From positions 64,449-78,726 of IMG/VR virus record IMGVR_UViG_3300001533_000890: 14,278 nt of DNA; one strand, given 5' to 3'. The position numbers were made by a program, and so were the translations under genes. Of this stretch, positions 4,905 through 14,278 are shown one piece after another (position 1 is the first letter of the stretch; each line of letters starts with the position of its first letter). This DNA is from a virus. Lineage: Duplodnaviria > Heunggongvirae > Uroviricota > Caudoviricetes. The notes below the pieces were generated by a model. It was not told where the DNA came from and did no database searches. It saw only the letters and a program-made list of their open reading frames with translations.

Positions 4905-5471
4905 ATGAACAGACTAAAGCACACACGCGGGTACTTGTGTGGCGCAATGGACCGGGTGGCGGACGCCGGTGAAGGCTGGCGGGTAGCATTACAAGAACAT
5001 CTACGGGACCTGGGCGTCTTTTGGCTTGACCCTACTCACAAGCCTATCCCCTTGGGAATCGAGGACGATGCTATCCGAGCCCGCATCAATATGCTAAAAC
5101 AGCAGGGGCGCTTCGATGAACTGCCGGAAGCATTGTCCATAATCCGCGCCGTTGACCTCCGAATGGTTGACATTTCGGACTTTCTTGTTGTAAACCTTGA
5201 CTTGGAGGTTCATGCAACCGGGACCTATGAAGAGTTGTTCCTGGCAAACCGCCAGAAGAAGCCTATCATTATTCATGTCGAGCAGGGTAAATCGAACACG
5301 CCAAACTGGTTATTTGGCGCTGTTCCACACCAAATGATTTTCTCAACCTGGGCCGAGGTTGTATCCTACCTTCTAAGCATTGACAGTGACCCGGTAGTTG
5401 AGACTTATGACCGTTGGCGTTTCTTTGATTTTGAACTCTGCCGAAAGTTCGAGGATACTAATGCACTTTGA
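4905..5471 (+). CDS. nucleoside 2-deoxyribosyltransferase / N-glycosidase family protein
   Basis: YLCGAM strand, W...LDP, D-x-x-x-V-x-x-SD-x-x-VV, and GT-x-x-E-x-x-x-A-x-x-x-x-KP with the nucleophile Glu. ATG follows the deoC stop by 1 nt. Confidence 0.8.
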   Translation: MNRLKHTRGYLCGAMDRVADAGEGWRVALQEHLRDLGVFWLDPTHKPIPLGIEDDAIRARINMLKQQGRFDELPEALSIIRAVDLRMVDISDFLVVNLDLEVHATGTYEELFLANRQKKPIIIHVEQGKSNTPNWLFGAVPHQMIFSTWAEVVSYLLSIDSDPVVETYDRWRFFDFELCRKFEDTNAL

Positions 5472-5775
5472 TATTCCACTCCGGTCCCCCGGCTATTACG
5501 TCACCGTGTTTTTGAATTATAATGTTGTCGCTACCGGGGGACCACCAGACCCTCCTTGTGATGTTGTCCTTAAGGGTGGCTCGTTTCTTGAGCTTTGGCA
5601 GGTAAGAGGGTCAGCGGGATGCATAGAGAAGCGTGTGATTCTCTCGGCGGAGGATTGTAAGGGTTCTTTTGATAAGTTTATTTGTAACTACATCCGACGA
5701 AATCGGGACGAGCTTACAACCCTTTGCCGTCAATTTGAACTTGACAATTTTCCAGCGTGTGGTAAGATTGAATAG
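5461..5775 (+). CDS. hypothetical protein
   Basis: RBS gagga before ATG 5461; overlaps the upstream stop. Confidence 0.65.
   Translation: MHFDIPLRSPGYYVTVFLNYNVVATGGPPDPPCDVVLKGGSFLELWQVRGSAGCIEKRVILSAEDCKGSFDKFICNYIRRNRDELTTLCRQFELDNFPACGKIE
5741..5768 (+). promoter_or_regulatory. sigma70-type promoter with extended -10
   Basis: TTGACA (5741-5746), 16-nt spacer, TGG then TAAGAT (5763-5768), at the 3' end of the upstream gene. Confidence 0.6.
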
Positions 5776-5810
5776 CGGCCAACATTCTGACACCCTAACT
5801 AAAGAAGCTT

Positions 5811-6086
5811 ATGGGACGCGAAGCAACGACTCTTAAAAGAACCGGTCACAAAGGACAATTTGTGAAGTATCCCTCTAACTGGGAGAAGCGAATGGTTCAC
5901 ACAGGTAAACGTCGATTTGACACATCGTGCGACCTTATCTGTGGCATGTGTGCGTGCGGAGAACGTCACAGTATTGATGACGATTGGGTCCAAAGTCTTC
6001 TTGCCAACTATAATTGTCGAATCGAGACACACGCAGAATGGTTGGAACGACAACGCGCCCAAGGTGGCCCCGACCTGAAAGGGTAG
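5811..6086 (+). CDS. hypothetical protein with Cys/His cluster (possible Zn binding)
   Basis: 91 aa containing CDLICGMCACGERH. Confidence 0.65.
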   Translation: MGREATTLKRTGHKGQFVKYPSNWEKRMVHTGKRRFDTSCDLICGMCACGERHSIDDDWVQSLLANYNCRIETHAEWLERQRAQGGPDLKG

Positions 6087-6088
6087 TG

Positions 6089-6412
6089 ATGCTTTATTTT
6101 GACAAGCTTGCACGTAACGCCGGGCTGCCGACCAAAACTATTTGGTTTGACTTTACGCGAGGCATGCGCATACTTGAGCTGCCAAGCGGGTGGGCTATTC
6201 AAACAGCTAACGCTGACATTGAGGGTAATACGCTGTTTGAAACTCTTATTAGCTGGGATAGCTATACCGCGTTAGTTGTGAGGCGCGAAGTTCTTACCCG
6301 GGAGGGTGACATTATTGACCCGAAAGATTGGGAGCAGGGCAGTAGCGTAAGAGAAGATGCCTACCCAATAGGGTCCGTCGTTCGGCTACGAAAAGGAGCC
6401 CCCGATGCTTAG
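6089..6412 (+). CDS. hypothetical protein
   Basis: ATG 6089 lies 2 nt after the upstream stop; protein-like composition; overlaps the next gene. Confidence 0.65.
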   Translation: MLYFDKLARNAGLPTKTIWFDFTRGMRILELPSGWAIQTANADIEGNTLFETLISWDSYTALVVRREVLTREGDIIDPKDWEQGSSVREDAYPIGSVVRLRKGAPDA

Positions 6413-7040
6413 CAATATAATTTGTCTACCATACCCTAGCTTTCAGGCGTCAATTGATTGTTACTCGGCGCGTACGCTACGCCAAACACTACGGGAGGCG
6501 GCAAAAATTTCCGAGTGGCTACTGGAGCCCCGGTCGTCTTGTGTTCGGCCCTCAATGACCCAGTCGTATTTGGCTTGGCGGCATTGGCCCGGCGCTTTTG
6601 CCTCGTTTGCGGCTCGCTGTATAAATACTTGCGAAAAACGCGACCTGCCCCTACCCGCTCATTCGGTTGGGGTGCTAGAGAAGTTTTTCCAAGATAAAGG
6701 GTCAACCCGGTTAGAAAAGCCACTCTGGCTAGGTTGGACACGGGTACACACGGTCCATCGGCAACTACTCCTGTGGGCCGGAAAGGCCGAGCAACTTATG
6801 GACCGATTGAAACTTATTTCGTGCGACCACGTCGATCTGTTTTGGAGCTTGTCCGGGCTTTCTTGTGCCGAGGATCTCTATTCATTGAACCCCGGCACTG
6901 TTCACCGGCTACATCGACTACTTGACGAGTATCAAACCCCACTGGCCGCTGAAAATCACTATGAGCAGCATTTTCCCGGCGTAATTGTCGATGACACTGT
7001 TATTCTCTACCATCGAACAAAAGAAGATTACTATGTTTAA
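6405..7040 (+). CDS. pyrimidine-dimer DNA glycosylase/endonuclease V-like (MSMEG_6728-type) protein, divergent
   Basis: CLPYPSF..S......L.Q...EA..I, W..W..A, and P.WLG...VH..HR..LL...HY...FP match the family pattern, with an internal insertion. RBS aaggag. Confidence 0.65.
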   Translation: MLSNIICLPYPSFQASIDCYSARTLRQTLREAAKISEWLLEPRSSCVRPSMTQSYLAWRHWPGAFASFAARCINTCEKRDLPLPAHSVGVLEKFFQDKGSTRLEKPLWLGWTRVHTVHRQLLLWAGKAEQLMDRLKLISCDHVDLFWSLSGLSCAEDLYSLNPGTVHRLHRLLDEYQTPLAAENHYEQHFPGVIVDDTVILYHRTKEDYYV

Positions 7041-7440
7041 CGACTTGGCCCGGTTTTTTGCTGACCTTGAGGGTTTCATCGACGAAAAGACTCGCGCGGG
7101 TTTAGTTCGTCGATTTTGCCGTATGGTGACACTGCGCATGAAAGATGAAGGAGACACCGCCACCCTGCGCGATTGGCTTACCAGGGGGAAAGCCCAGTTT
7201 ATTCGGGATTGCGGGATTGCCGACGGTTTGGGCACTGTGCCGGAAACTCTTAAAGTGGAAAAGACACCACTTGCACATTTTTGTAGCGACTGGATTTCGG
7301 CCAATAAATACCGCCGCACCCCCGACTCCAAGTGGCGCAGGTTTACTCTTGAGCAAAATCATCTTCGTGTTGCGATGGTAGCTCAATTAGCTAATCTCGC
7401 AAAAGGAAACCCCGCGCTGAATTTGACAACCGTGAAATAA
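7033..7440 (+). CDS. hypothetical protein
   Basis: ATG 7033 overlaps the upstream stop; helical, protein-like sequence. Confidence 0.65.
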   Translation: MFNDLARFFADLEGFIDEKTRAGLVRRFCRMVTLRMKDEGDTATLRDWLTRGKAQFIRDCGIADGLGTVPETLKVEKTPLAHFCSDWISANKYRRTPDSKWRRFTLEQNHLRVAMVAQLANLAKGNPALNLTTVK

Positions 7441-7450
7441 GTGCTATACT
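7423..7450 (+). promoter_or_regulatory. sigma70-type promoter with extended -10
   Basis: TTGACA (7423-7428), 16-nt spacer, TGC then TATACT (7445-7450). RBS GGAGG at 7456-7460. Confidence 0.8.
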
Positions 7451-7466
7451 TGTATGGAGGCAAACA

Positions 7467-7928
7467 ATGACCACAGCAGCATCAAACTCGACAGCACTTG
7501 TTTCGGCGTGTGACTTGCAAGCTCTGAATGTTTTGCAGGCGCTTCGTCGCACCGTCCCGGCTAACACCGGGGAGAAGGCAAAGAAGGCCCTTACCGCCAC
7601 ATTGAAAAACCTTACCGTTAAAGGGGCTATTGGACTTTTGCAGTCTCTTGGGTATGGCCGAGATGGTTTTTACTATCGGAGGGAATATTGGATTATTAGT
7701 GACCTTTTGAACCCGAGGTATTTTCCAGGCTCCGTGGAAAATTTCGCCCGCGAAACGGAGGTGTTTACCTTTTGGGGTGGCCCGCCGACAAAGCTGGGTT
7801 ACTACTACGGCACCCTGGAAACGTTTCTCCGGGATCGGGTTCTAGGTGAGATTACACATCGCGGCATCGAGACTGTCGCCCGTGAAATTGGTCTTGACCT
7901 TGAAAGCGAAATCCAATGCACCAAGTAA
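7467..7928 (+). CDS. GGPP-motif family paralog 1 (unknown function)
   Basis: NLTVKGAIGLLQSLG ... FTFWGGPPTKLGYYYGTLETFLRD. Confidence 0.8.
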   Translation: MTTAASNSTALVSACDLQALNVLQALRRTVPANTGEKAKKALTATLKNLTVKGAIGLLQSLGYGRDGFYYRREYWIISDLLNPRYFPGSVENFARETEVFTFWGGPPTKLGYYYGTLETFLRDRVLGEITHRGIETVAREIGLDLESEIQCTK

Positions 7929-8302
7929 TGGAAACTGTTCAAAAGTCTGAAACAATGTGGGACCTCATCGAACCTGAGGTCGCCCATGATGCCTTGTCCG
8001 ATTTTTCAGCATTCAGGGCTTTGAATTATGTTGTTCGGATTTTTAACCGGGACAAAGATGAAATTGTTTTCCCCGAGCCTGACGGCGATTTGCTCTTGAC
8101 GCCAGTTCAGCTTGCCGAGCACCTGCGCAAGCACAACCCCCTGGCTATTAACGTAAAACTTTGTTTCAAGGGTGGGCCCCCCGGTTACCAGGACTGGTAT
8201 GAGGGCTCGTTGCTCACTTACATGGTCGACTGTTTGTTTTCTAGTATTGCAGGTGGGGACGAGCTTACAGTAGCGGACTTTTTGAGAAGGACAGCCGCCT
8301 GA
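7916..8302 (+). CDS. GGPP-motif family paralog 2
   Basis: DFSAFRALNYVVRIFN ... LCFKGGPPGYQDWYEGSLLTYMVD. Confidence 0.8.
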   Translation: MHQVMETVQKSETMWDLIEPEVAHDALSDFSAFRALNYVVRIFNRDKDEIVFPEPDGDLLLTPVQLAEHLRKHNPLAINVKLCFKGGPPGYQDWYEGSLLTYMVDCLFSSIAGGDELTVADFLRRTAA

Positions 8303-8658
8303 TGGTTGTGAAAACTAAGGTAGCATGCCCCCTTGTTGGGCAGGTATTGGTTCAACTTGCCAGGAAACATAATGCCGGTGGCAAGCGTTTTTACTGCGAT
8401 TTCGCGAAGGGCACGGTATTTTGTACCGTGGACGAAGCCCTGGGCACTTGGCCCACATCCGTGTTAAGCTTGCCTAGCATGGACTTAGGCCCTGTTCGTT
8501 TTTACGGTGGTCCGCCACAAAAAAGCCGCTGGTACACCGGAAGCCTGTTTACGGTGTTAAAGGACATGGAACTTTTCGCCCTGGCAACTTCTACCGATGG
8601 CCCTACAACACGCCCGCTGCCTTTCATCGAGAAACCAGCACCTTTCCAAGTGACATAA
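8302..8658 (+). CDS. GGPP-motif family paralog 3
   Basis: TGATG overlap; VGQVLVQLARKHN ... TVDEALGTW ... VRFYGGPPQKSRWYTGSLFTVLKD. Confidence 0.8.
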   Translation: MVVKTKVACPLVGQVLVQLARKHNAGGKRFYCDFAKGTVFCTVDEALGTWPTSVLSLPSMDLGPVRFYGGPPQKSRWYTGSLFTVLKDMELFALATSTDGPTTRPLPFIEKPAPFQVT

Positions 8659-8661
8659 ACT

Positions 8662-8964
8662 ATGTTGCCTGACCCGCGCCAACTAATACCAGTCCTTATG
8701 GCGGGCTGTGCCGACCTGTCAGCCGGGCAAGCATTTCGCTGTCTAGCTGACTTGGGTCGCGGCGCGGAGTTGTTTGTTTGTAGCGGTATGTGGTACTCTG
8801 CCGACGAGGCGATCCGTTCATGGGCTAACCGGGCTTTAGCCACTCCCTGCCCTCAGGTCGGGCCCCTACGTTTTGTAGGCGGTCCTGCGGGCCGGGTTTA
8901 CTATGACGGCACGCTGCTGACTTTTCTCTGTGACGCTGAGTTGCGAGAGTTATTTTGTTCTTGA
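8662..8964 (+). CDS. GGPP-motif family paralog 4
   Basis: DLSAGQAFRCLADLG ... SADEAIRSW ... LRFVGGPAGRVYYDGTLLTFLCD. Confidence 0.8.
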   Translation: MLPDPRQLIPVLMAGCADLSAGQAFRCLADLGRGAELFVCSGMWYSADEAIRSWANRALATPCPQVGPLRFVGGPAGRVYYDGTLLTFLCDAELRELFCS

Positions 8965-8988
8965 CTTCGGCACCCTGTGTGGTATACT
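8961..8988 (+). promoter_or_regulatory. sigma70-type promoter with extended -10, likely producing a leaderless mRNA
   Basis: TTGACT (8961-8966), 16-nt spacer, TGG then TATACT (8983-8988). An in-frame ATG at 8995 sits 7 nt after the -10 box with no room for an RBS. Confidence 0.75.
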
Positions 8989-8994
8989 TCAAGT

Positions 8995-9324
8995 ATGAGC
9001 CAATACCAAGCCACTCAGAGTGCAATTCTTTACCAAAGTCTAACAGTCGGGGACGCGCTATCCGTCTTGTCGATTAAGTACGGACGGCACCGTGCCGCGA
9101 TTGTTCGCAATGGTTTGCTTTTGACTGTTGGGGAGGCCCTGACAAACTGGCCGGGGGTTCTTCTTGATAAGAATTGTCAAGACTCTGGTTTGATAGAATT
9201 CCACGGTGGACCGCCCGGGCGTGCGAAATGGTTTTCGGGATCAATTTACACGTTCCTCTGTGATGCCGCGCTCTTTGAAAAGCATACAAAGGGGCAAAAG
9301 CCCACTGAAAGACTTTCCCTGTGA
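8995..9324 (+). CDS. GGPP-motif family paralog 5
   Basis: SLTVGDALSVLSIKYG ... TVGEALTNW ... IEFHGGPPGRAKWFSGSIYTFLCD. Start moved from 8977, which lies inside the promoter, to ATG 8995. Confidence 0.8.
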   Translation: MSQYQATQSAILYQSLTVGDALSVLSIKYGRHRAAIVRNGLLLTVGEALTNWPGVLLDKNCQDSGLIEFHGGPPGRAKWFSGSIYTFLCDAALFEKHTKGQKPTERLSL

Positions 9325-9647
9325 TTATTAAGCAGCATAAACCGACTCCACCTGACCTTAAGCACGCTTTTGCTGGACTAAGCGTCCGCGCAGCGCTTTT
9401 GACACTGGCCCAGCGATACAACGCGAGGGGCCGTGTATTTTATGTACGACGAGAGGGTGGCACGACGTCGCAGTGTTGCACTGTACTAGGGGCATTGACG
9501 CAGCTACCGGTCGCAACCCTTGAGGCCCGTTGTGACCGGGTGATTGTTTCCTTCACTGGCGGGCCCCCGGGTAGGCGTGCCCTGCGACTGGGCACGGTTT
9601 TGACGCTGCTTTGTGATGGGGTCCTGTTGGAGGCCGTGAGAAATTGA
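9321..9647 (+). CDS. GGPP-motif family paralog 6
   Basis: GTGA overlap; GLSVRAALLTLAQRYN ... TVLGALTQL ... VSFTGGPPGRRALRLGTVLTLLCD. Confidence 0.8.
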   Translation: MIIKQHKPTPPDLKHAFAGLSVRAALLTLAQRYNARGRVFYVRREGGTTSQCCTVLGALTQLPVATLEARCDRVIVSFTGGPPGRRALRLGTVLTLLCDGVLLEAVRN

Positions 9648-10171
9648 CAACACCTAAGAAGTTACTTGATCGGCTAAACGGCACCCGTGTGGCTCGCGCT
9701 ATTTTATTGCTGCGTGCAATGGGGCATCACCGTGACATTATTTATGCCCCGTCAGACGCACAACTTTTCCGTGGAGTCGGGGCCGTTTATCGGACAACCC
9801 CGGACGAGCTGTGTTTAGCCAAACCAGATAACGCCCTAGCTGCGGCATGTGTGTTAGACTTTCAAGGGGGTCCACCGCCAGCAACCGATTGGTGGCGCGG
9901 TAACTTACTGTTGCTTATTACTGACCGGCTCCTTCGGCACCAAGTTAGCCCTTATGTACTCCCTTCAAGCCCCACGGACCCCGTCACGGCGTGGTCCCTC
10001 CGGGCGTTGGCACGGACTTGCCGTCCGCATGAGTCGCTATACACGGGGCAAAAATTCGCAGACAAGTTGTTTAACAAAAGCCTGCCCGCTGAGACTGACG
10101 AGACGGTCTATCTCTGGTCGAGTAGCGGACGGACCGCCGTAAAGGGGTGTGCGCACCAGCCATTGTACTAG
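9644..10171 (+). CDS. GGPP-motif family paralog 7, with C-terminal extension running into the tRNA-like gene
   Basis: TTGA overlap; TRVARAILLLRAMG ... LDFQGGPPPATDWWRGNLLLLITD. The last ~70 aa are unrelated to the family. Confidence 0.7.
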   Translation: MTTPKKLLDRLNGTRVARAILLLRAMGHHRDIIYAPSDAQLFRGVGAVYRTTPDELCLAKPDNALAAACVLDFQGGPPPATDWWRGNLLLLITDRLLRHQVSPYVLPSSPTDPVTAWSLRALARTCRPHESLYTGQKFADKLFNKSLPAETDETVYLWSSSGRTAVKGCAHQPLY

Positions 10172-10246
10172 GTAACAGGCTGAACCTATGCTGTTCGTAA
10201 AACAGTTGCCACGGGCTCTGGGGGTTCGACTCCCCCTACAATAACC
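10161..10246 (+). tRNA. non-canonical tRNA-Tyr(GUA)-like gene
   Basis: Acceptor cattgta (10161-67)/tacaata (10237-43), D stem aggt/acct with a GG-containing loop, anticodon stem gctgt/acagt with loop TCGTAAA (GTA at 10197-99), long variable arm (gcc-acg-ggc), T arm ggggg-TTCGACT-ccccc, discriminator A then CC(T). Confidence 0.65.
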
Positions 10247-10273
10247 TGGCGCGTATATTCTTTGTCACACGGC

Positions 10274-10302
10274 AGCGGGCGCTTTCGGGCCTCGCTTTTA
10301 TT
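10274..10302 (+). terminator. possible intrinsic terminator after the tRNA-like gene
   Basis: Bulged stem agcg-ggc / gcc-t-cgct followed by TTTATT. Confidence 0.4.
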
Positions 10303-10319
10303 ACTTTGGAGGAACGGGT

Positions 10320-10511
10320 ATGGTAGGGACGTTCTGGCTTTCTAGCCCCCGGATGACGGTTCGGGTTCGAGTTAGGGGAAAGATTATCATTGACGCCGCC
10401 CCGGTTGTGCGCGTTTTTATCGGTCAACCGCTGCCGAACCTTGTTCAATGGTTGCAGCGACAGGGGGATGTAAGAATAGAATTTCTAGGTAAGCAGCATG
10501 TTACAGTCTAA
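10320..10511 (+). CDS. small hypothetical protein
   Basis: Strong RBS GGAGG 7 nt upstream; 63 aa; overlaps the next ATG. Confidence 0.7.
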   Translation: MVGTFWLSSPRMTVRVRVRGKIIIDAAPVVRVFIGQPLPNLVQWLQRQGDVRIEFLGKQHVTV

Positions 10512-10773
10512 TACCTTACTAACTCGTGATGACTTTCGCCGCCTTGTTTTTAAACGAGACAACGGCCGTTGCGTCATCTGCGGGGCCTGGGGCGTTGACG
10601 CCCACCCTATTATGGAACGTCGTCTGTTTCCAGACGGGGGTTATTACCTGGACAATGGCGCTACGCTGTGCTCTGAGCACCACATTGAGGCCGAGAAAAC
10701 AACCCTGGACTGCGAGACAATTCGCCACCGGGCCGCTATTGGTACTGTGCCTTCCGCCGCACCTGTATCCTGA
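10498..10773 (+). pseudogene. HNH-like N-terminal domain of an HNH-RNA ligase fusion, detached by a frameshift near 10750
   Basis: LLTRDDFRRLVFKRDNGRCVICG...DAH(P)IMERRLF...YYLDNGATLCSEHH. The protein sense continues in the next frame as LPPHLYPD after one extra base near 10750. Confidence 0.7.
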
Positions 10774-10798
10774 CGCTTGCTGGGATAAATGGGGCGAC

Positions 10799-11524
10799 AT
10801 GATTTTACCAAACGGGCACCGGGTGCGCGGGGAGCTGTTTGATGACCCGTCCGTTCAGAAAATTCTGGCGGCAGGCGGGGTGCTCCCTCTGTTCATACCC
10901 TGGATTAAGTACCCGCGCACATATCACTTGCCAGAAAGTCCTGGTGCCAGCAAAGATGACCGTGTCCTGGAAACAAGTTCACACTTCCGGGGAAAGCGTG
11001 TAGTCGTAACTGAAAAGCGCGACGGGGAAAACACGACAATATACCAAGATTATATCCATGCGCGCTCGTTGGATACCGATAGCCACCCATCACGGTCCTG
11101 GGTTAAAAACTATGCCGCCAAGATTGGTTGGACTATTCCCGAGGGCTGGCGCGTGTGTGGAGAAAACTTGTGGGCGAAACACTCAATATTATACCAAAAC
11201 CTGTCAAACTACTTTGAGGGTTTTTCGGTGTGGGACGAGAAAAACTATTGCCTTAGCTGGGATGATACTCTGGAATGGTTTGAATTACTCGACATAAAGC
11301 CCGTCCCAATTTTGTATGACGGGCCCTGGTTTGACACCCTGGTGGCCGAGCTATCACCGAACGATACCTCCCAGCAAGAAGGCTTTGTTATTCGAGTCGC
11401 CGATTCGTTTCATTACTCCCAGTTCCGTTTTTGTGTTGCGAAGTGGGTTAGGGCGGGCCATGTCGCCACCACCCACCACTGGCGGGCGCAGCCGTTGGTT
11501 CAGAACTTTTTAGCAACTGAGTGA
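10799..11524 (+). CDS. ATP-dependent RNA ligase (nucleotidyltransferase domain)
   Basis: KYPRTYHLP, motif I VTEKRDGEN, ARS, CGEN, EGFVIR and AKWVR. The frame is open from 10526; ATG 10799 is a possible restart after the frameshift. Confidence 0.85.
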   Translation: MILPNGHRVRGELFDDPSVQKILAAGGVLPLFIPWIKYPRTYHLPESPGASKDDRVLETSSHFRGKRVVVTEKRDGENTTIYQDYIHARSLDTDSHPSRSWVKNYAAKIGWTIPEGWRVCGENLWAKHSILYQNLSNYFEGFSVWDEKNYCLSWDDTLEWFELLDIKPVPILYDGPWFDTLVAELSPNDTSQQEGFVIRVADSFHYSQFRFCVAKWVRAGHVATTHHWRAQPLVQNFLATE

Positions 11525-11772
11525 TTACCCCAGTACCGGAGGTTTACAAGATGAGTGTGGCGGGAGAACAATACTACCAGTTAGAAGCATACTGTGCTGG
11601 GTCCTGGGAGCCTGTGGAGGGCTGCACTTATGAGTTTATAGGGGCCCCGGTTGACTTTCAACATTTTCTGTATAGGGTAAATCCAACCGATGGCCAACGC
11701 CTGCAACGCACCGGTCCCCGGGAATGCAGGTGGCGATACACACCCGACCGGGGACTCCATTCAGTGGGGTAA
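11521..11772 (+). CDS. hypothetical protein
   Basis: GTGA overlap with the ligase stop; alternative ATG at 11551 has RBS ggagg. Confidence 0.6.
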   Translation: MITPVPEVYKMSVAGEQYYQLEAYCAGSWEPVEGCTYEFIGAPVDFQHFLYRVNPTDGQRLQRTGPRECRWRYTPDRGLHSVG

Positions 11773-11776
11773 GAGT

Positions 11777-12040
11777 ATGTCCTATAACTACCGTCGAAAG
11801 TATCAGGTACAAATTCAAACAATACCTGGAATTTGGAAGGCTGAGGCTGTATGGGCTGTCTACCCGTCCGACTTCCGTGGCTTCATTGCATTTTTGCACG
11901 GTGAATGCCCAGGAACACTTCCAGAGGGTCAAGAAGTACCGCTCCTTAAGGGGCCTCCTATCAGAGTCAAAAGGGTTTCAGATGATGCTGCCCCGCAGTT
12001 TGTGTGGCCTGACCGAGGCCCAGCTACGGAATCTCCTTGA
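11777..12040 (+). CDS. hypothetical protein
   Basis: ATG 11777 lies 4 nt after the upstream stop; protein-like from MSYNYRRKY. Confidence 0.6.
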   Translation: MSYNYRRKYQVQIQTIPGIWKAEAVWAVYPSDFRGFIAFLHGECPGTLPEGQEVPLLKGPPIRVKRVSDDAAPQFVWPDRGPATESP

Positions 12041-12065
12041 CAAGCTGGTCACTGTATGGTATACT
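12037..12065 (+). promoter_or_regulatory. sigma70-type promoter with extended -10
   Basis: TTGACA (12037-42), 17-nt spacer, TGG then TATACT (12060-65). Confidence 0.8.
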
Positions 12066-12430
12066 TTAATATACTTCCAGCCGAACACTATCGTTGTCGT
12101 GTAGAAAACTTGACCCTAACCTGCGCGACGATTTTGCTTAGGAACTTAGGAAACTTCGATCTTGACGCACTGCAAGTGACTTCGTGGGCCGTGGACACGT
12201 TCTCCACCACCCCGGAGGTACTTGCACGCACGCGGGCTGCTATGAGGGTTGGGGACCTTTCCAACACCCTCGTCCAGTTTAACGGAGGCCCGGCTCAAGC
12301 TCAAGTTTTTACAGGGGATTATACCCTGTTTATCCTGGACCGAATTATGTATATGCTGTGCGAGCGTGGGGTAGATTTTGTCGAACAAATCCTTGCATAC
12401 AGTGAGGGATTTTCCGTATGCCCCACCTAA
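12056..12430 (+). CDS. GGPP-motif family paralog 8
   Basis: NLTLTCATILLRNLG ... TTPEVLART ... VQFNGGPAQAQVFTGDYTLFILD. Start uncertain because the ATG lies inside the promoter. Confidence 0.7.
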   Translation: MVYFNILPAEHYRCRVENLTLTCATILLRNLGNFDLDALQVTSWAVDTFSTTPEVLARTRAAMRVGDLSNTLVQFNGGPAQAQVFTGDYTLFILDRIMYMLCERGVDFVEQILAYSEGFSVCPT

Positions 12431-12765
12431 CAGCCCCGGTACGGGAAGTATTACTGCGAATGGTGCCTAAGCTGACAGCTTCGCAGGCGGCGCATTGTCT
12501 TTGGGTGCTAAACCAGCCGGTTGACCGCCCTCTTTCACGCCCCGCTGGCTTCACCACCCTTGCAATGTTAGCACAACACCCTGAGACAGGGTCGAGGGCT
12601 TTAACGGAGTTTGGATCGTACGAAGCTGTGATAGGCCCGCCGACTTCGGCCAGGGGCCCCCGGCTGGCAACTCTTAGTCAAATTGTTGCAGACTACTTTT
12701 TGACGGCTGCTACTAAAATCGGAGGTTTTCAGACGTTGGATGTAATAGCTCAATGTACCCCCTAA
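12418..12765 (+). CDS. GGPP-motif family paralog 9 (most degenerate)
   Basis: KLTASQAAHCLWVLN ... TTLAMLAQH ... AVIGPPTSARGPRLATLSQIVAD. Confidence 0.65.
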   Translation: MPHLTAPVREVLLRMVPKLTASQAAHCLWVLNQPVDRPLSRPAGFTTLAMLAQHPETGSRALTEFGSYEAVIGPPTSARGPRLATLSQIVADYFLTAATKIGGFQTLDVIAQCTP

Positions 12766-12787
12766 TTGTTTGACTCGAAAGCACCCA

Positions 12788-13159
12788 ATGACACCGCTTT
12801 TTGTGTATGGCACCTTGTGCCAGGGATTTAGTAATCACCAGCTTTTACAAGGGTGCCCCTTTGTTGGCAACGGCACCGTGCCCGGGACAATTCTTGTGGA
12901 TTTAGGCGGATGCCCCGGCCTGCTATTTGCGCGCAGCGGCTCGGAGGATTGGGCACGGGGAGAAGTTTACGATATTCGCCCCAAGCTGCCCACCATTCTC
13001 GCGAACCTAGATCAACTTGAAAACGAGGGGAAATTTTATCGCCGTCTTATTGCGCCGGTTCAACTAACGGATGGTGGGTATAAGCCTTGCTGGGTTTATG
13101 CGTACCTCCCGGCGCTGCAGTGTGATAACTGCGTCCGTGGCGGCGTTTGGAGATGCTAG
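12788..13159 (+). CDS. gamma-glutamylcyclotransferase (GGCT/AIG2-like) family protein
   Basis: LFVYGTL..G..NH..L, LVDLGGCPGL, RGEVY, LDQLE (catalytic Glu), YRR, WVY. The frame is also open from TTG 12770. Confidence 0.88.
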   Translation: MTPLFVYGTLCQGFSNHQLLQGCPFVGNGTVPGTILVDLGGCPGLLFARSGSEDWARGEVYDIRPKLPTILANLDQLENEGKFYRRLIAPVQLTDGGYKPCWVYAYLPALQCDNCVRGGVWRC

Positions 13160-13167
13160 GCTGGACA

Positions 13168-13251
13168 TAGTCAGGGCGGACTACACGTTTTGCTACGCCC
13201 GAGGGCCCGAAAGCCCTTGTCACCGGACACGGGCAGGCGTGCCGCCCTGCC
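13168..13251 (+). other. structured intergenic element (H-type pseudoknot plus two hairpins)
   Basis: tagtc/gacta (13168-72/13179-83), loop gggcg pairing with cgccc (13174-78/13196-200), agggc/gccct (13202-06/13213-17), ggcagg/cctgcc (13232-37/13246-51). Confidence 0.35.
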
Positions 13252-13275
13252 AGCCGATTCACAACAGGAGCCACA

Positions 13276-13521
13276 ATGCACTACACCATAGAGCTTTATA
13301 CAAACGCTTTGAAAGTTCCGGCCAGCACCCCGGGCTTCCGTGCATGGCTTGAGTTTCAAAGCTCTCGTGGGTTTACGCTTGAAAGTTTGACGGTTATCCA
13401 GCAACCTGGGCATCTTCCAGTTGCCGCCGCACGCATCCGAAACTTTACTGTTCCAGATCAACTTATGGCATTGCTGGATTCTCAGTTGACTAACGATTGC
13501 GCCGGTGAGGCCCGGCGCTGA
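13276..13521 (+). CDS. hypothetical protein
   Basis: RBS aggag; 81 aa. Confidence 0.7.
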   Translation: MHYTIELYTNALKVPASTPGFRAWLEFQSSRGFTLESLTVIQQPGHLPVAAARIRNFTVPDQLMALLDSQLTNDCAGEARR

Positions 13522-13544
13522 GCTTTATAAGGACAGGGAGACTA

Positions 13545-13877
13545 ATGAAGAGACTAGGAGTTATTTCGGTTGGGCAGTTTTTGACGCTTACTGCACCCCC
13601 GCATGTTACCCCCTACACCCGTTACCGTGGCCGAGCTTGTCGCGTACTTGACATTCTCAAGCAGGGCACCTCATACCGGGCAAGGATTGTGTTGCCCGGT
13701 CGGCCGGGCCTAAAGCGACGGCATGGGGAGCGTTTGCGCCCGTCTTCTGAACTTATTCTAAGCACCTATGAGGACTTGCACGGCCAGTCGTGGGCAGCGT
13801 GCAAGCGCCAAGCATGTCCGGTTAGGCCGGGCTGCACAGCTTTCGCTAAAGACTTTCTTAAACGGCTTGTAAACTAA
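13545..13877 (+). CDS. hypothetical basic protein
   Basis: RBS gggag; 110 aa; Arg-rich; followed by terminator-like hairpins. Confidence 0.7.
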   Translation: MKRLGVISVGQFLTLTAPPHVTPYTRYRGRACRVLDILKQGTSYRARIVLPGRPGLKRRHGERLRPSSELILSTYEDLHGQSWAACKRQACPVRPGCTAFAKDFLKRLVN

Positions 13878-13893
13878 CCTTACCGCTACCCAT

Positions 13894-13927
13894 AAACCCG
13901 GCCGCTTTCGACTGGGTTTCTGTTTGT
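13894..13927 (+). terminator. probable intrinsic terminator of the + strand block
   Basis: aaacccgg (13894-13901)/ctgggttt (13912-19) stem followed by ctgtttgt. Confidence 0.5.
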
Positions 13928-13978
13928 TAAGGGCATTTGCAAGCTAGGTTCGGCTCGAATACAAAACGAGTTTGTTAA

Positions 13979-14012
13979 CGGCTAAAAGCCACCCGAAGGT
14001 GGCTTTTAGCCG
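13979..14012. terminator. perfect 15-bp hairpin, probable bidirectional terminator between convergent blocks
   Basis: CGGCTAAAAGCCACC-cgaa-GGTGGCTTTTAGCCG, with A4/T4 tracts symmetric about a GC-rich core. Confidence 0.7.
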
Positions 14013-14042
14013 GGGTTGGTTATGGTTGGACGTCCTTTTTAA

Positions 14043-14152
14043 GGGCCATAACCACGGGCGGGTATTCCCGCCCCGCTTTCAGGACCCGCCCGATCTGGGC
14101 CGTCTTACATTAGCGCCTTGATGCTGGTAGTTCAGGCGCTCGGCCCTGGCCC
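14043..14152. other. three-way-junction structured element
   Basis: gggcca/tggccc (14043-48/14147-52), gggcgggt/acccgccc (14056-63/14084-91), gggccg/cggccc (14097-102/14141-46), agcgcct/aggcgct (14112-18/14134-40). Confidence 0.45.
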
Positions 14153-14175
14153 CTCGTTTCAATACCACCGGGTTC

Positions 14176-14277
14176 TTAGGCGTTGGTTCGGGTCGCCCGG
14201 AGACGTTGGCGTGCCTCTCTCAGGTATTGGGCGACAACCTCATTATAGGCATAGGGCTCATCAAGGTGATAACCCAC
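14176..14277 (-). CDS. 3' end of a convergent gene (partial, unknown product)
   Basis: The minus strand reads VGYHLDEPYAYNEVVAQYLREARQRLRATRTNA* with TAA at 14178-14176. Protein-like and open to the window edge. Confidence 0.55.
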   Translation of the reverse strand: MGYHLDEPYAYNEVVAQYLREARQRLRATRTNA

Positions 14278-14278
14278 T

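Follow-up and report, generated by a model that had tools for sequence, protein, structure and literature searches.

In Bacillus phage SPO1, a large myovirus, strong host-type promoters precede a host-takeover module made up of numerous small genes whose fold is unknown and which are not known to be paralogous to each other. Tandem arrays of diverged small paralogs are found in the SUKH/Imm polyimmunity loci of polymorphic toxin systems, where the paralogs are built on one alpha+beta scaffold and each is thought to bind a different partner, and the superfamily has been recruited by DNA viruses as well (PMC3113570, PMC3482391). Tevenvirinae genomes are reported to encode several small early proteins of the T4 GoF/LSm-like family that share one fold and have very dissimilar sequences (PMC12152347). 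Here we analyse a window of 14,278 nucleotides (nt), which corresponds to bases 64449–78726, the 3' end, of the 78,726-bp IMG/VR virus contig IMGVR_UViG_3300001533_000890 (CheckV completeness estimate 73%) and encodes nine small proteins, named G1 to G9 in order, that carry a Gly-Gly-Pro-Pro (GGPP) motif or a variant of it. We conclude that the nine open reading frames (ORFs) belong to a family of small (~100 amino acids [aa]) alpha/beta proteins, predicted to be soluble, that is confined to one lineage and has not been described before. The protein family is new and its fold probably is as well, in a genomic arrangement of a familiar kind; for now, this is a well-characterised new domain rather than a new mechanism.

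The array resembles the SUKH/Imm loci in being a tandem set of diverged small paralogs on a single scaffold; however, no SUKH or Imm model from Pfam matches any of the nine proteins or any of 107 family members, and no toxin gene lies nearby, the neighbours being genes for a methylase, DeoC, an NDT-like protein, an RNA ligase and GGACT. The predicted topology, moreover, has no structural neighbour, and the setting is the accessory region of a lytic-type phage rather than a bacterial toxin locus. Like the SPO1 module, the array is a block of small genes behind what appear to be host-type promoters, and the terminase of this phage is distantly SPO1-like (25% identity), but a tblastn search with G5 detected no sequence similarity in 50,697 phage records. 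With the T4 GoF family, it has in common several small phage proteins of one fold per genome; the fold there, however, is LSm-like and comes with no conserved sequence motif, whereas the GGPP genes stand in tandem, have a sharp motif and do not match LSm. The GGPP family is related to none of these three systems by sequence or fold.

An earlier note on this DNA, made from the sequence alone, had described nine ORFs at 7467–10171 and 12056–12765 as a single family, and all nine are present there on the plus strand. G1–G8 share the motif F-x-G-G-P-[PA]-x(3-4)-[WY]-[YF]-x-G-x-L-x-x-x-L-x-D, and F-x-G-G-P together with an Asp that follows the first Gly at a distance of 19 residues occurs in all eight and in each of the 24 sequences of our family alignment. 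Identity between copies is 18–34%. In an all-versus-all phmmer comparison, G1–G8 were mutually significant, with E values of 1e-6 to 1e-17 in the core formed by G3–G6. When leave-one-out hidden Markov models (HMMs) were scored against all 140 window ORFs of at least 50 aa, the E values were 1.6e-9 for G1, 3.3e-8 for G2, 2.2e-14 for G3, 8.3e-8 for G7, and 3.1e-5 for G8, and the best unrelated ORF reached no better than 0.3; G4–G6 matched an HMM built from 153 sequences at 1e-18 to 1e-24. The eight GGPP and GGPA codon strings quoted in the earlier note, with their third-position differences, are exact, and no DNA-level repeat was found between the copies, the sole notable direct repeat being an 18-nt promoter box (8975–8992 and 12052–12069). 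Because the copies share no DNA repeat, their similarity lies at the protein level, as had been proposed. The N-terminal helix L-[ST]-x-x-x-A-x-x-x-L is likewise family-wide; the middle helix T-V-x-E-A-L-x-x-W is present in G3–G6 and specific to that subgroup rather than a trait of the whole array.

The ninth protein probably belongs to the family, as a degenerate member. In G9 the codons ataggcccgccg encode IGPP, and A-V-I-G-P-P replaces F-x-G-G-P-P; neither the invariant Phe nor the first Gly is kept, and the Asp is retained. Against the family HMMs it scored an E value of 3.9 in the leave-one-out search and 0.5 (7.3 bits) with the larger model, and no homologues of its own were found among 5.8 billion proteins. 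A profile alignment with hhalign nevertheless placed G9 in register with the family over 86 columns (P 2.2e-4, probability 45%), with N-terminal helix on helix, GPP on GGPP and Asp on Asp, and its HMM score of 7.5 bits exceeded that of all 3000 of 3000 composition-matched shuffles (maximum 4.8). G9 is thus probably a degenerate ninth copy, judging from this alignment and score.

To determine how widely the family occurs, we searched 1.84 billion representative sequences exhaustively with the family HMM, which yielded 440 clusters with an E value of 1e-3 or less, 236 of them at 1e-10 or less; a word-indexed search returned four outside homologues only. Among the fetched matches and the proteins of the window, 152 of 153 contain F-x-G-G-P. 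The ten clusters that were looked up are all metagenomic (JGI, ENA, Logan), and their members are 'hypothetical' or nameless and have no accession numbers. As the earlier note had supposed, the motif belongs to no described family: hmmscan of the nine proteins against Pfam-A, PHROGs v4 and NCBIfam gave a best E value of 0.04, all such matches being unrelated, no Pfam family was matched by more than one of the 107 family members, the best hit of the family profile among PDB sequences was unrelated (E value 0.16), and the structure libraries described below contained no match. Neither megablast of 6 kb nor the tblastn search with G5 found a match among the 50,697 GenBank phages, no copy was found in 185,579 GTDB species genomes with a combined pattern and tblastn scan, the reach of which is limited by the pattern, and full-text searches of the literature found nothing on the family. 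The family comprises at least 440 sequence clusters; neither curated families nor libraries of solved and predicted structures revealed a relative of it or of its predicted fold.

Longer forms of the protein were sought as well. No fused or longer forms were found among proteins of 238–2000 aa, which is weak evidence, and ten matches of 216–261 aa contained no Pfam domain. At least some of the 'long' forms are extensions made by the gene caller across an upstream paralog in another frame. In two relatives, L009 and L012, the reading frame of the second family gene stays open far upstream (9728–10429 and 9998–10678, respectively) and overlaps the first one, which lies in another frame (9732–10079 and 10002–10319); public gene calls in relatives miss the first family gene or give artificially long products of 200–260 aa.

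An AlphaFold2 model of G5, computed from the 24-sequence family alignment, has a predicted local distance difference test (pLDDT) score of 87.9 and a predicted template modelling (pTM) score of 0.76. Its N-terminal helix (residues 5–20) is less confident; beyond it, the model runs through a helix (24–35), two strands (41–44 and 47–50), two short helices (51–57 and 60–63), two further strands (73–77 and 84–88), a helix that carries the invariant Asp96 (90–104) and a last helix (109–114). The predicted core is a helix, a beta-hairpin, short helices, a second beta-hairpin and a helix, and the loop G-G-P-P-x-x-x-x lies between strands 73–77 and 84–88, in the second hairpin. The type 6 domain of L009, a paralog that is 24% identical, was modelled with pLDDT 93–98 and the same order of elements. 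The two paralogs thus agree with a shared fold, but both models were derived from family alignments and are not independent proof of it; the homology statistics speak more strongly for it.

Searches with the model found no credible structural neighbour, either with Foldseek in PDB, AFDB clusters, BFVD and Swiss-Prot models (E values of 0.1 or more) or in the ESM Atlas (TM scores of 0.45 or less). DUF5329/YfeK (PF17263) was the only family that recurred among the weak neighbours (three libraries, TM 0.33–0.40, E value 0.1–0.8); this lead has no sequence support, the PF17263 HMM having no match in the phage contig even at an E value of 10. The structural scores are below any threshold of confidence, and no link to the GGPP motif could be shown. 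Resemblances to the double-stranded RNA-binding domain (dsRBD) are at noise level. A prediction of a G5 homodimer from two copies and a 107-row alignment scored 0.00, was run without controls and is evidence neither way.

The search identified eight further distinct loci (L009, L011, L012, L013, L014, L020, L022 and L023), which together with the window give a set of nine; L010 and L021 are duplicates of L009, and L015 resembles L014. The relatives' contigs are up to 110 kb long; two of the relatives, IMGVR_UViG_3300037067_004728 and 3300037225_000328, look full-length at ~105–110 kb. All loci have the same synteny of methylase, zinc ribbon, DeoC and NDT-like genes followed by the array. The number of copies per locus ranges from six to eight, with eight in the window, L009 and L020, seven in five loci and six in the truncated L011. 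Because six to eight copies are held per genome across the phage clade, selection keeps every copy.

In a maximum-likelihood tree of 65 domains, the copies cluster by array position. Type 1, to which G1 belongs, is found in eight of the nine phages with a Shimodaira–Hasegawa-like approximate likelihood ratio test (SH-aLRT) support of 93, and type 2, that of G2, in all nine (SH-aLRT 95). Positions 3–7 are 1:1 orthologues among L009, L020, L022, L023 and L012, and L011, L013 and L014 have paralog sets of their own in common. G3–G6 group into a clade whose sister is a single gene present in L011, L013 and L014 (SH-aLRT 97); they are a fourfold expansion specific to the lineage of the window. Beyond the family core, each orthogroup has 7–25 conserved positions specific to it. 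Between phages, G1 and G2 orthologues are 27–47% identical and the neighbouring enzymes 40–65%.

The ratio of nonsynonymous to synonymous substitution rates (omega, dN/dS) was usable for few pairs, dS being saturated or uncomputable for most, and in the comparison of L009 with L020 it was 0.14–0.17 for the family and 0.09–0.16 for the neighbours. Where measurable, the orthologues are under purifying selection. From omega, orthogroups and synteny it follows that the array is old, that its members are individually maintained and that slow birth and death of copies changes the repertoire. The view taken in the earlier note, that of old and heavily diverged paralogs arrayed on a fixed scaffold, is borne out by the low identity between copies, positional orthogroups across distant phages and the one confident fold model. 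A case of fusion was seen in L009 (11178–11825) and in the 99.9% identical L010, which come from two samples: the adjacent type 5 and type 6 paralogs form a single 215-aa two-domain protein, and L020, the closest relative, has the two as individual ORFs that do not lie in the same frame. An AlphaFold model of this fusion (domain 1 pLDDT 41–70, pTM 0.55), in which nearly all rows of the MAFFT alignment cover domain 2, allows no inference on packing.

Within the window, the genes of the array are closely packed on the plus strand. G1 (7467–7928, 153 aa) carries the domain at residues ~40–150. G2 (7916–8302) is 128 aa long, or 124 aa if it starts at the ATG at 7928, which may be the case and would make it overlap the G1 stop as TAATG. 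G3 (8302–8658, 118 aa) overlaps the G2 stop (TGATG) and is followed by G4 (8662–8964, 100 aa), a GGPA variant. G5 (8977–9324) would be 115 aa from a GTG at 8977; the ATG at 8995, which gives 109 aa, is probably its start, because the –10 box of a promoter-like sequence extends as far as 8988 and the gene is 109 aa long in the public call as well. G6 (9321–9647, 108 aa) has a GTG start that overlaps the G5 stop (GTGA), and G7 (9644–10171, 175 aa), which has a C-terminal extension of ~65 aa after the domain, has a TTG start that overlaps the G6 stop (TTGA). Stop and start codons thus overlap at G1/G2, G2/G3, G5/G6 and G6/G7. A tRNA-Tyr (GTA) was called by ARAGORN on the plus strand at 10161–10246, its 5' end overlapping the last codons of G7; an Rfam scan of the window returned no family, tRNA included, at the gathering score, and this tRNA may be atypical. 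G8 (12056–12430, 124 aa), a GGPA variant, diverges the most among the clear members. It follows G7 at a distance of 1.9 kb, past the HNH and RNA ligase genes, and its stop is overlapped by G9 (12418–12765, 115 aa). No transmembrane segments were found in the nine proteins (maximum Kyte-Doolittle KD19 value 1.57). Their isoelectric points (pI) range from 4.6 to 10.5, with G3, G5, G6 and G7 basic (pI 9–10.5) and G2, G4 and G8 acidic (pI 4.6–4.9).

In a sigma-70 scan of positions 5400–14278, three of the four best matches were promoter-like sequences with an extended –10 element, TTGAC[AT]-N16/17-TGnTATACT, all on the plus strand. The first (7423–7450, TTGACA-16-TGcTATACT, 11/12) ends 17 nt before the ATG of G1 and is followed by a GGAGG Shine-Dalgarno sequence 6 nt ahead of that codon. 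The second (8961–8988, TTGACT-16-TGgTATACT, 10/12) separates G4 from the ATG at 8995 and ends 7 nt before the latter. The third (12037–12065, TTGACA-17-TGgTATACT, 11/12) ends on the annotated ATG of G8, and because its –10 box overlaps this codon, either the start of G8 or the use of this promoter is uncertain. With the pattern TTGAC[AT]-N13-15-TGn-TATA[AC]T and one mismatch allowed per hexamer, the 78.7-kb contig has seven matches compared with 2.3 expected in shuffles, all on the plus strand at 41739–76513 of the contig, in its non-structural half; four are in the window, at 2329, 7423, 8961 and 12037, and three are upstream of it. The sites at 2329 and 12037 have a longer box in common (TTGACAAGCTGGT...TATGGTA). 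Because of these extended –10 promoters and the overlapping stop and start codons, the array looks like two or three operons driven by the host RNA polymerase.

Arguing by analogy and from guilt by association, we tentatively favour, at somewhat less than even confidence, the reading that the array encodes small binding proteins which share a fixed scaffold and are not redundant, with a different partner for each orthogroup and expression from host-type promoters. A clade of uncultured myovirus-like phages keeps six to eight diverged copies in tandem at one syntenic site in the non-structural accessory region; the conserved motif would build the scaffold, each orthogroup would bind its own partner in the infected cell via its own conserved surface residues, and the array would be a set of accessory binders, for host takeover or counter-defence, rather than one enzyme or one repeated function. 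This reading is preferred because of the type-specific conservation, the wide pI spread, purifying selection, the host-type promoters and the neighbourhood of accessory and counter-defence-type genes; several phage counter-defence and host-takeover functions are found in multi-copy small accessory families. Several points weigh against it. In the comparison of L009 with L020, dN is 0.24–0.35 for the orthologues versus ~0.21 for neighbouring genes, so that the family evolves only slightly faster, and copy number is strikingly constant; a hot arms race would leave another signature. The arms-race character that the earlier note had suggested is weakened by six to eight copies held stably in nine loci and by omega of 0.14–0.17, and is sustained by the G3–G6 expansion and the differing repertoires of sub-lineages. 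Conservation is strongest in the predicted GGPP hairpin loop and its flanking aromatics; the loop, if exposed, would argue for one partner common to all copies. Early timing of expression, finally, is inferred with the promoter consensus as its sole basis.

The main rival, which we consider unlikely, is a hetero-oligomer, such as a ring or stack of about seven different but homologous chains, in which the motif would form the common subunit interface. A near-constant copy number of six to eight in nine loci, a conserved gene order with 1:1 positional orthologues within sub-lineages, purifying selection, and tight packing with stop/start overlaps that would favour equimolar synthesis are what such an assembly should leave behind, and the natural type 5/type 6 fusion in L009/L010 points the same way; this fusion, however, is absent from L020, the closest relative. 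The composition of the array, moreover, differs between sub-lineages, type 2 alone being found throughout and type 1 almost throughout, and the phage of the window fills four slots by a lineage-specific expansion of one type. G8 and G9 lie 1.9 kb away behind a promoter-like sequence of their own, and the G5 monomer model is compact and confident by itself. Conservation that peaks in the beta-hairpin loop and its flanks across 440 clusters, and not only in the helix cores, would fit a family of adaptors in which F-x-GGPP...W-Y-x-G...D docks onto one common host machine or phage enzyme and the variable parts, such as the N- and C-terminal extensions of G1 and G7 and the 211–222-aa forms in relatives, bring cargo or specificity. 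We regard this as quite improbable: Gly-Gly-Pro-Pro with aromatics and one Asp could equally be a purely structural turn clasp, and no gene was found that accompanies the array in every phage, a Trypsin_2 protease considered as common partner being absent from the 78.7-kb contig and a 151-aa gene upstream of the array not occurring in L011 or L014.

A role as small regulators that bind nucleic acid, each with a site of its own, and act on transcripts or DNA of phage or host would suit the basic pI of G3, G5, G6 and G7, the presence of an RNA ligase gene in the genome and the noise-level resemblances to dsRBD; G2, G4 and G8, however, are acidic, Pfam scans gave no known binding motif, and we hold this for very unlikely indeed. 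Broader than the reading of different small binders is the notion that the GGPP domain is a new fold used as a modular toolkit by one clade of large phages, either as neutralisers of defence or takeover targets, one per orthogroup, or as a hetero-oligomeric machine of about seven chains. This seems doubtful at present; if true, either form would represent phage accessory systems of a new class, with members in the hundreds. The delimited HMM, the orthogroup map and the confident model make the family well suited to structure determination and interaction screens.

The contig encodes a terminase, a portal, a major head protein, a tail-sheath-like protein, a primase, a helicase and a DNA polymerase. 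Given this gene set, and because the terminase is only ~25% identical to those of SPO1-like phages, the source is an uncultured myovirus-like phage without a close cultured relative. Around the array lie genes for a GNAT protein, an N6/N4 DNA methylase, a zinc ribbon protein, DeoC, an NDT-like protein, an RNA ligase and a GGACT cyclotransferase, and the relatives additionally have further methylases, an HD domain protein, NT5C and ThyX in this neighbourhood. The ORF at 10498–10773 has an HNH-type motif by eye, has no Pfam match and overlaps the long RNA ligase ORF at 10526–11524 in another frame; because the RNA_ligase match in the latter does not begin before residue 158, the true start of the ligase is probably well downstream of 10526. 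On the upstream side of the same region, relatives encode a BCS1-type AAA ATPase beside an M28 peptidase, and one relative has a faint match to the anti-defence sponge Tad5; these features lie at L009 904–3041, L012 590–2625 and L014 3345–3815, and none of the three was seen in the window. The best conserved small gene of the neighbourhood is a 91-aa Cys/His-rich ORF at 5811–6086, which matches no Pfam family and is 45–66% identical in eight of eight relatives.

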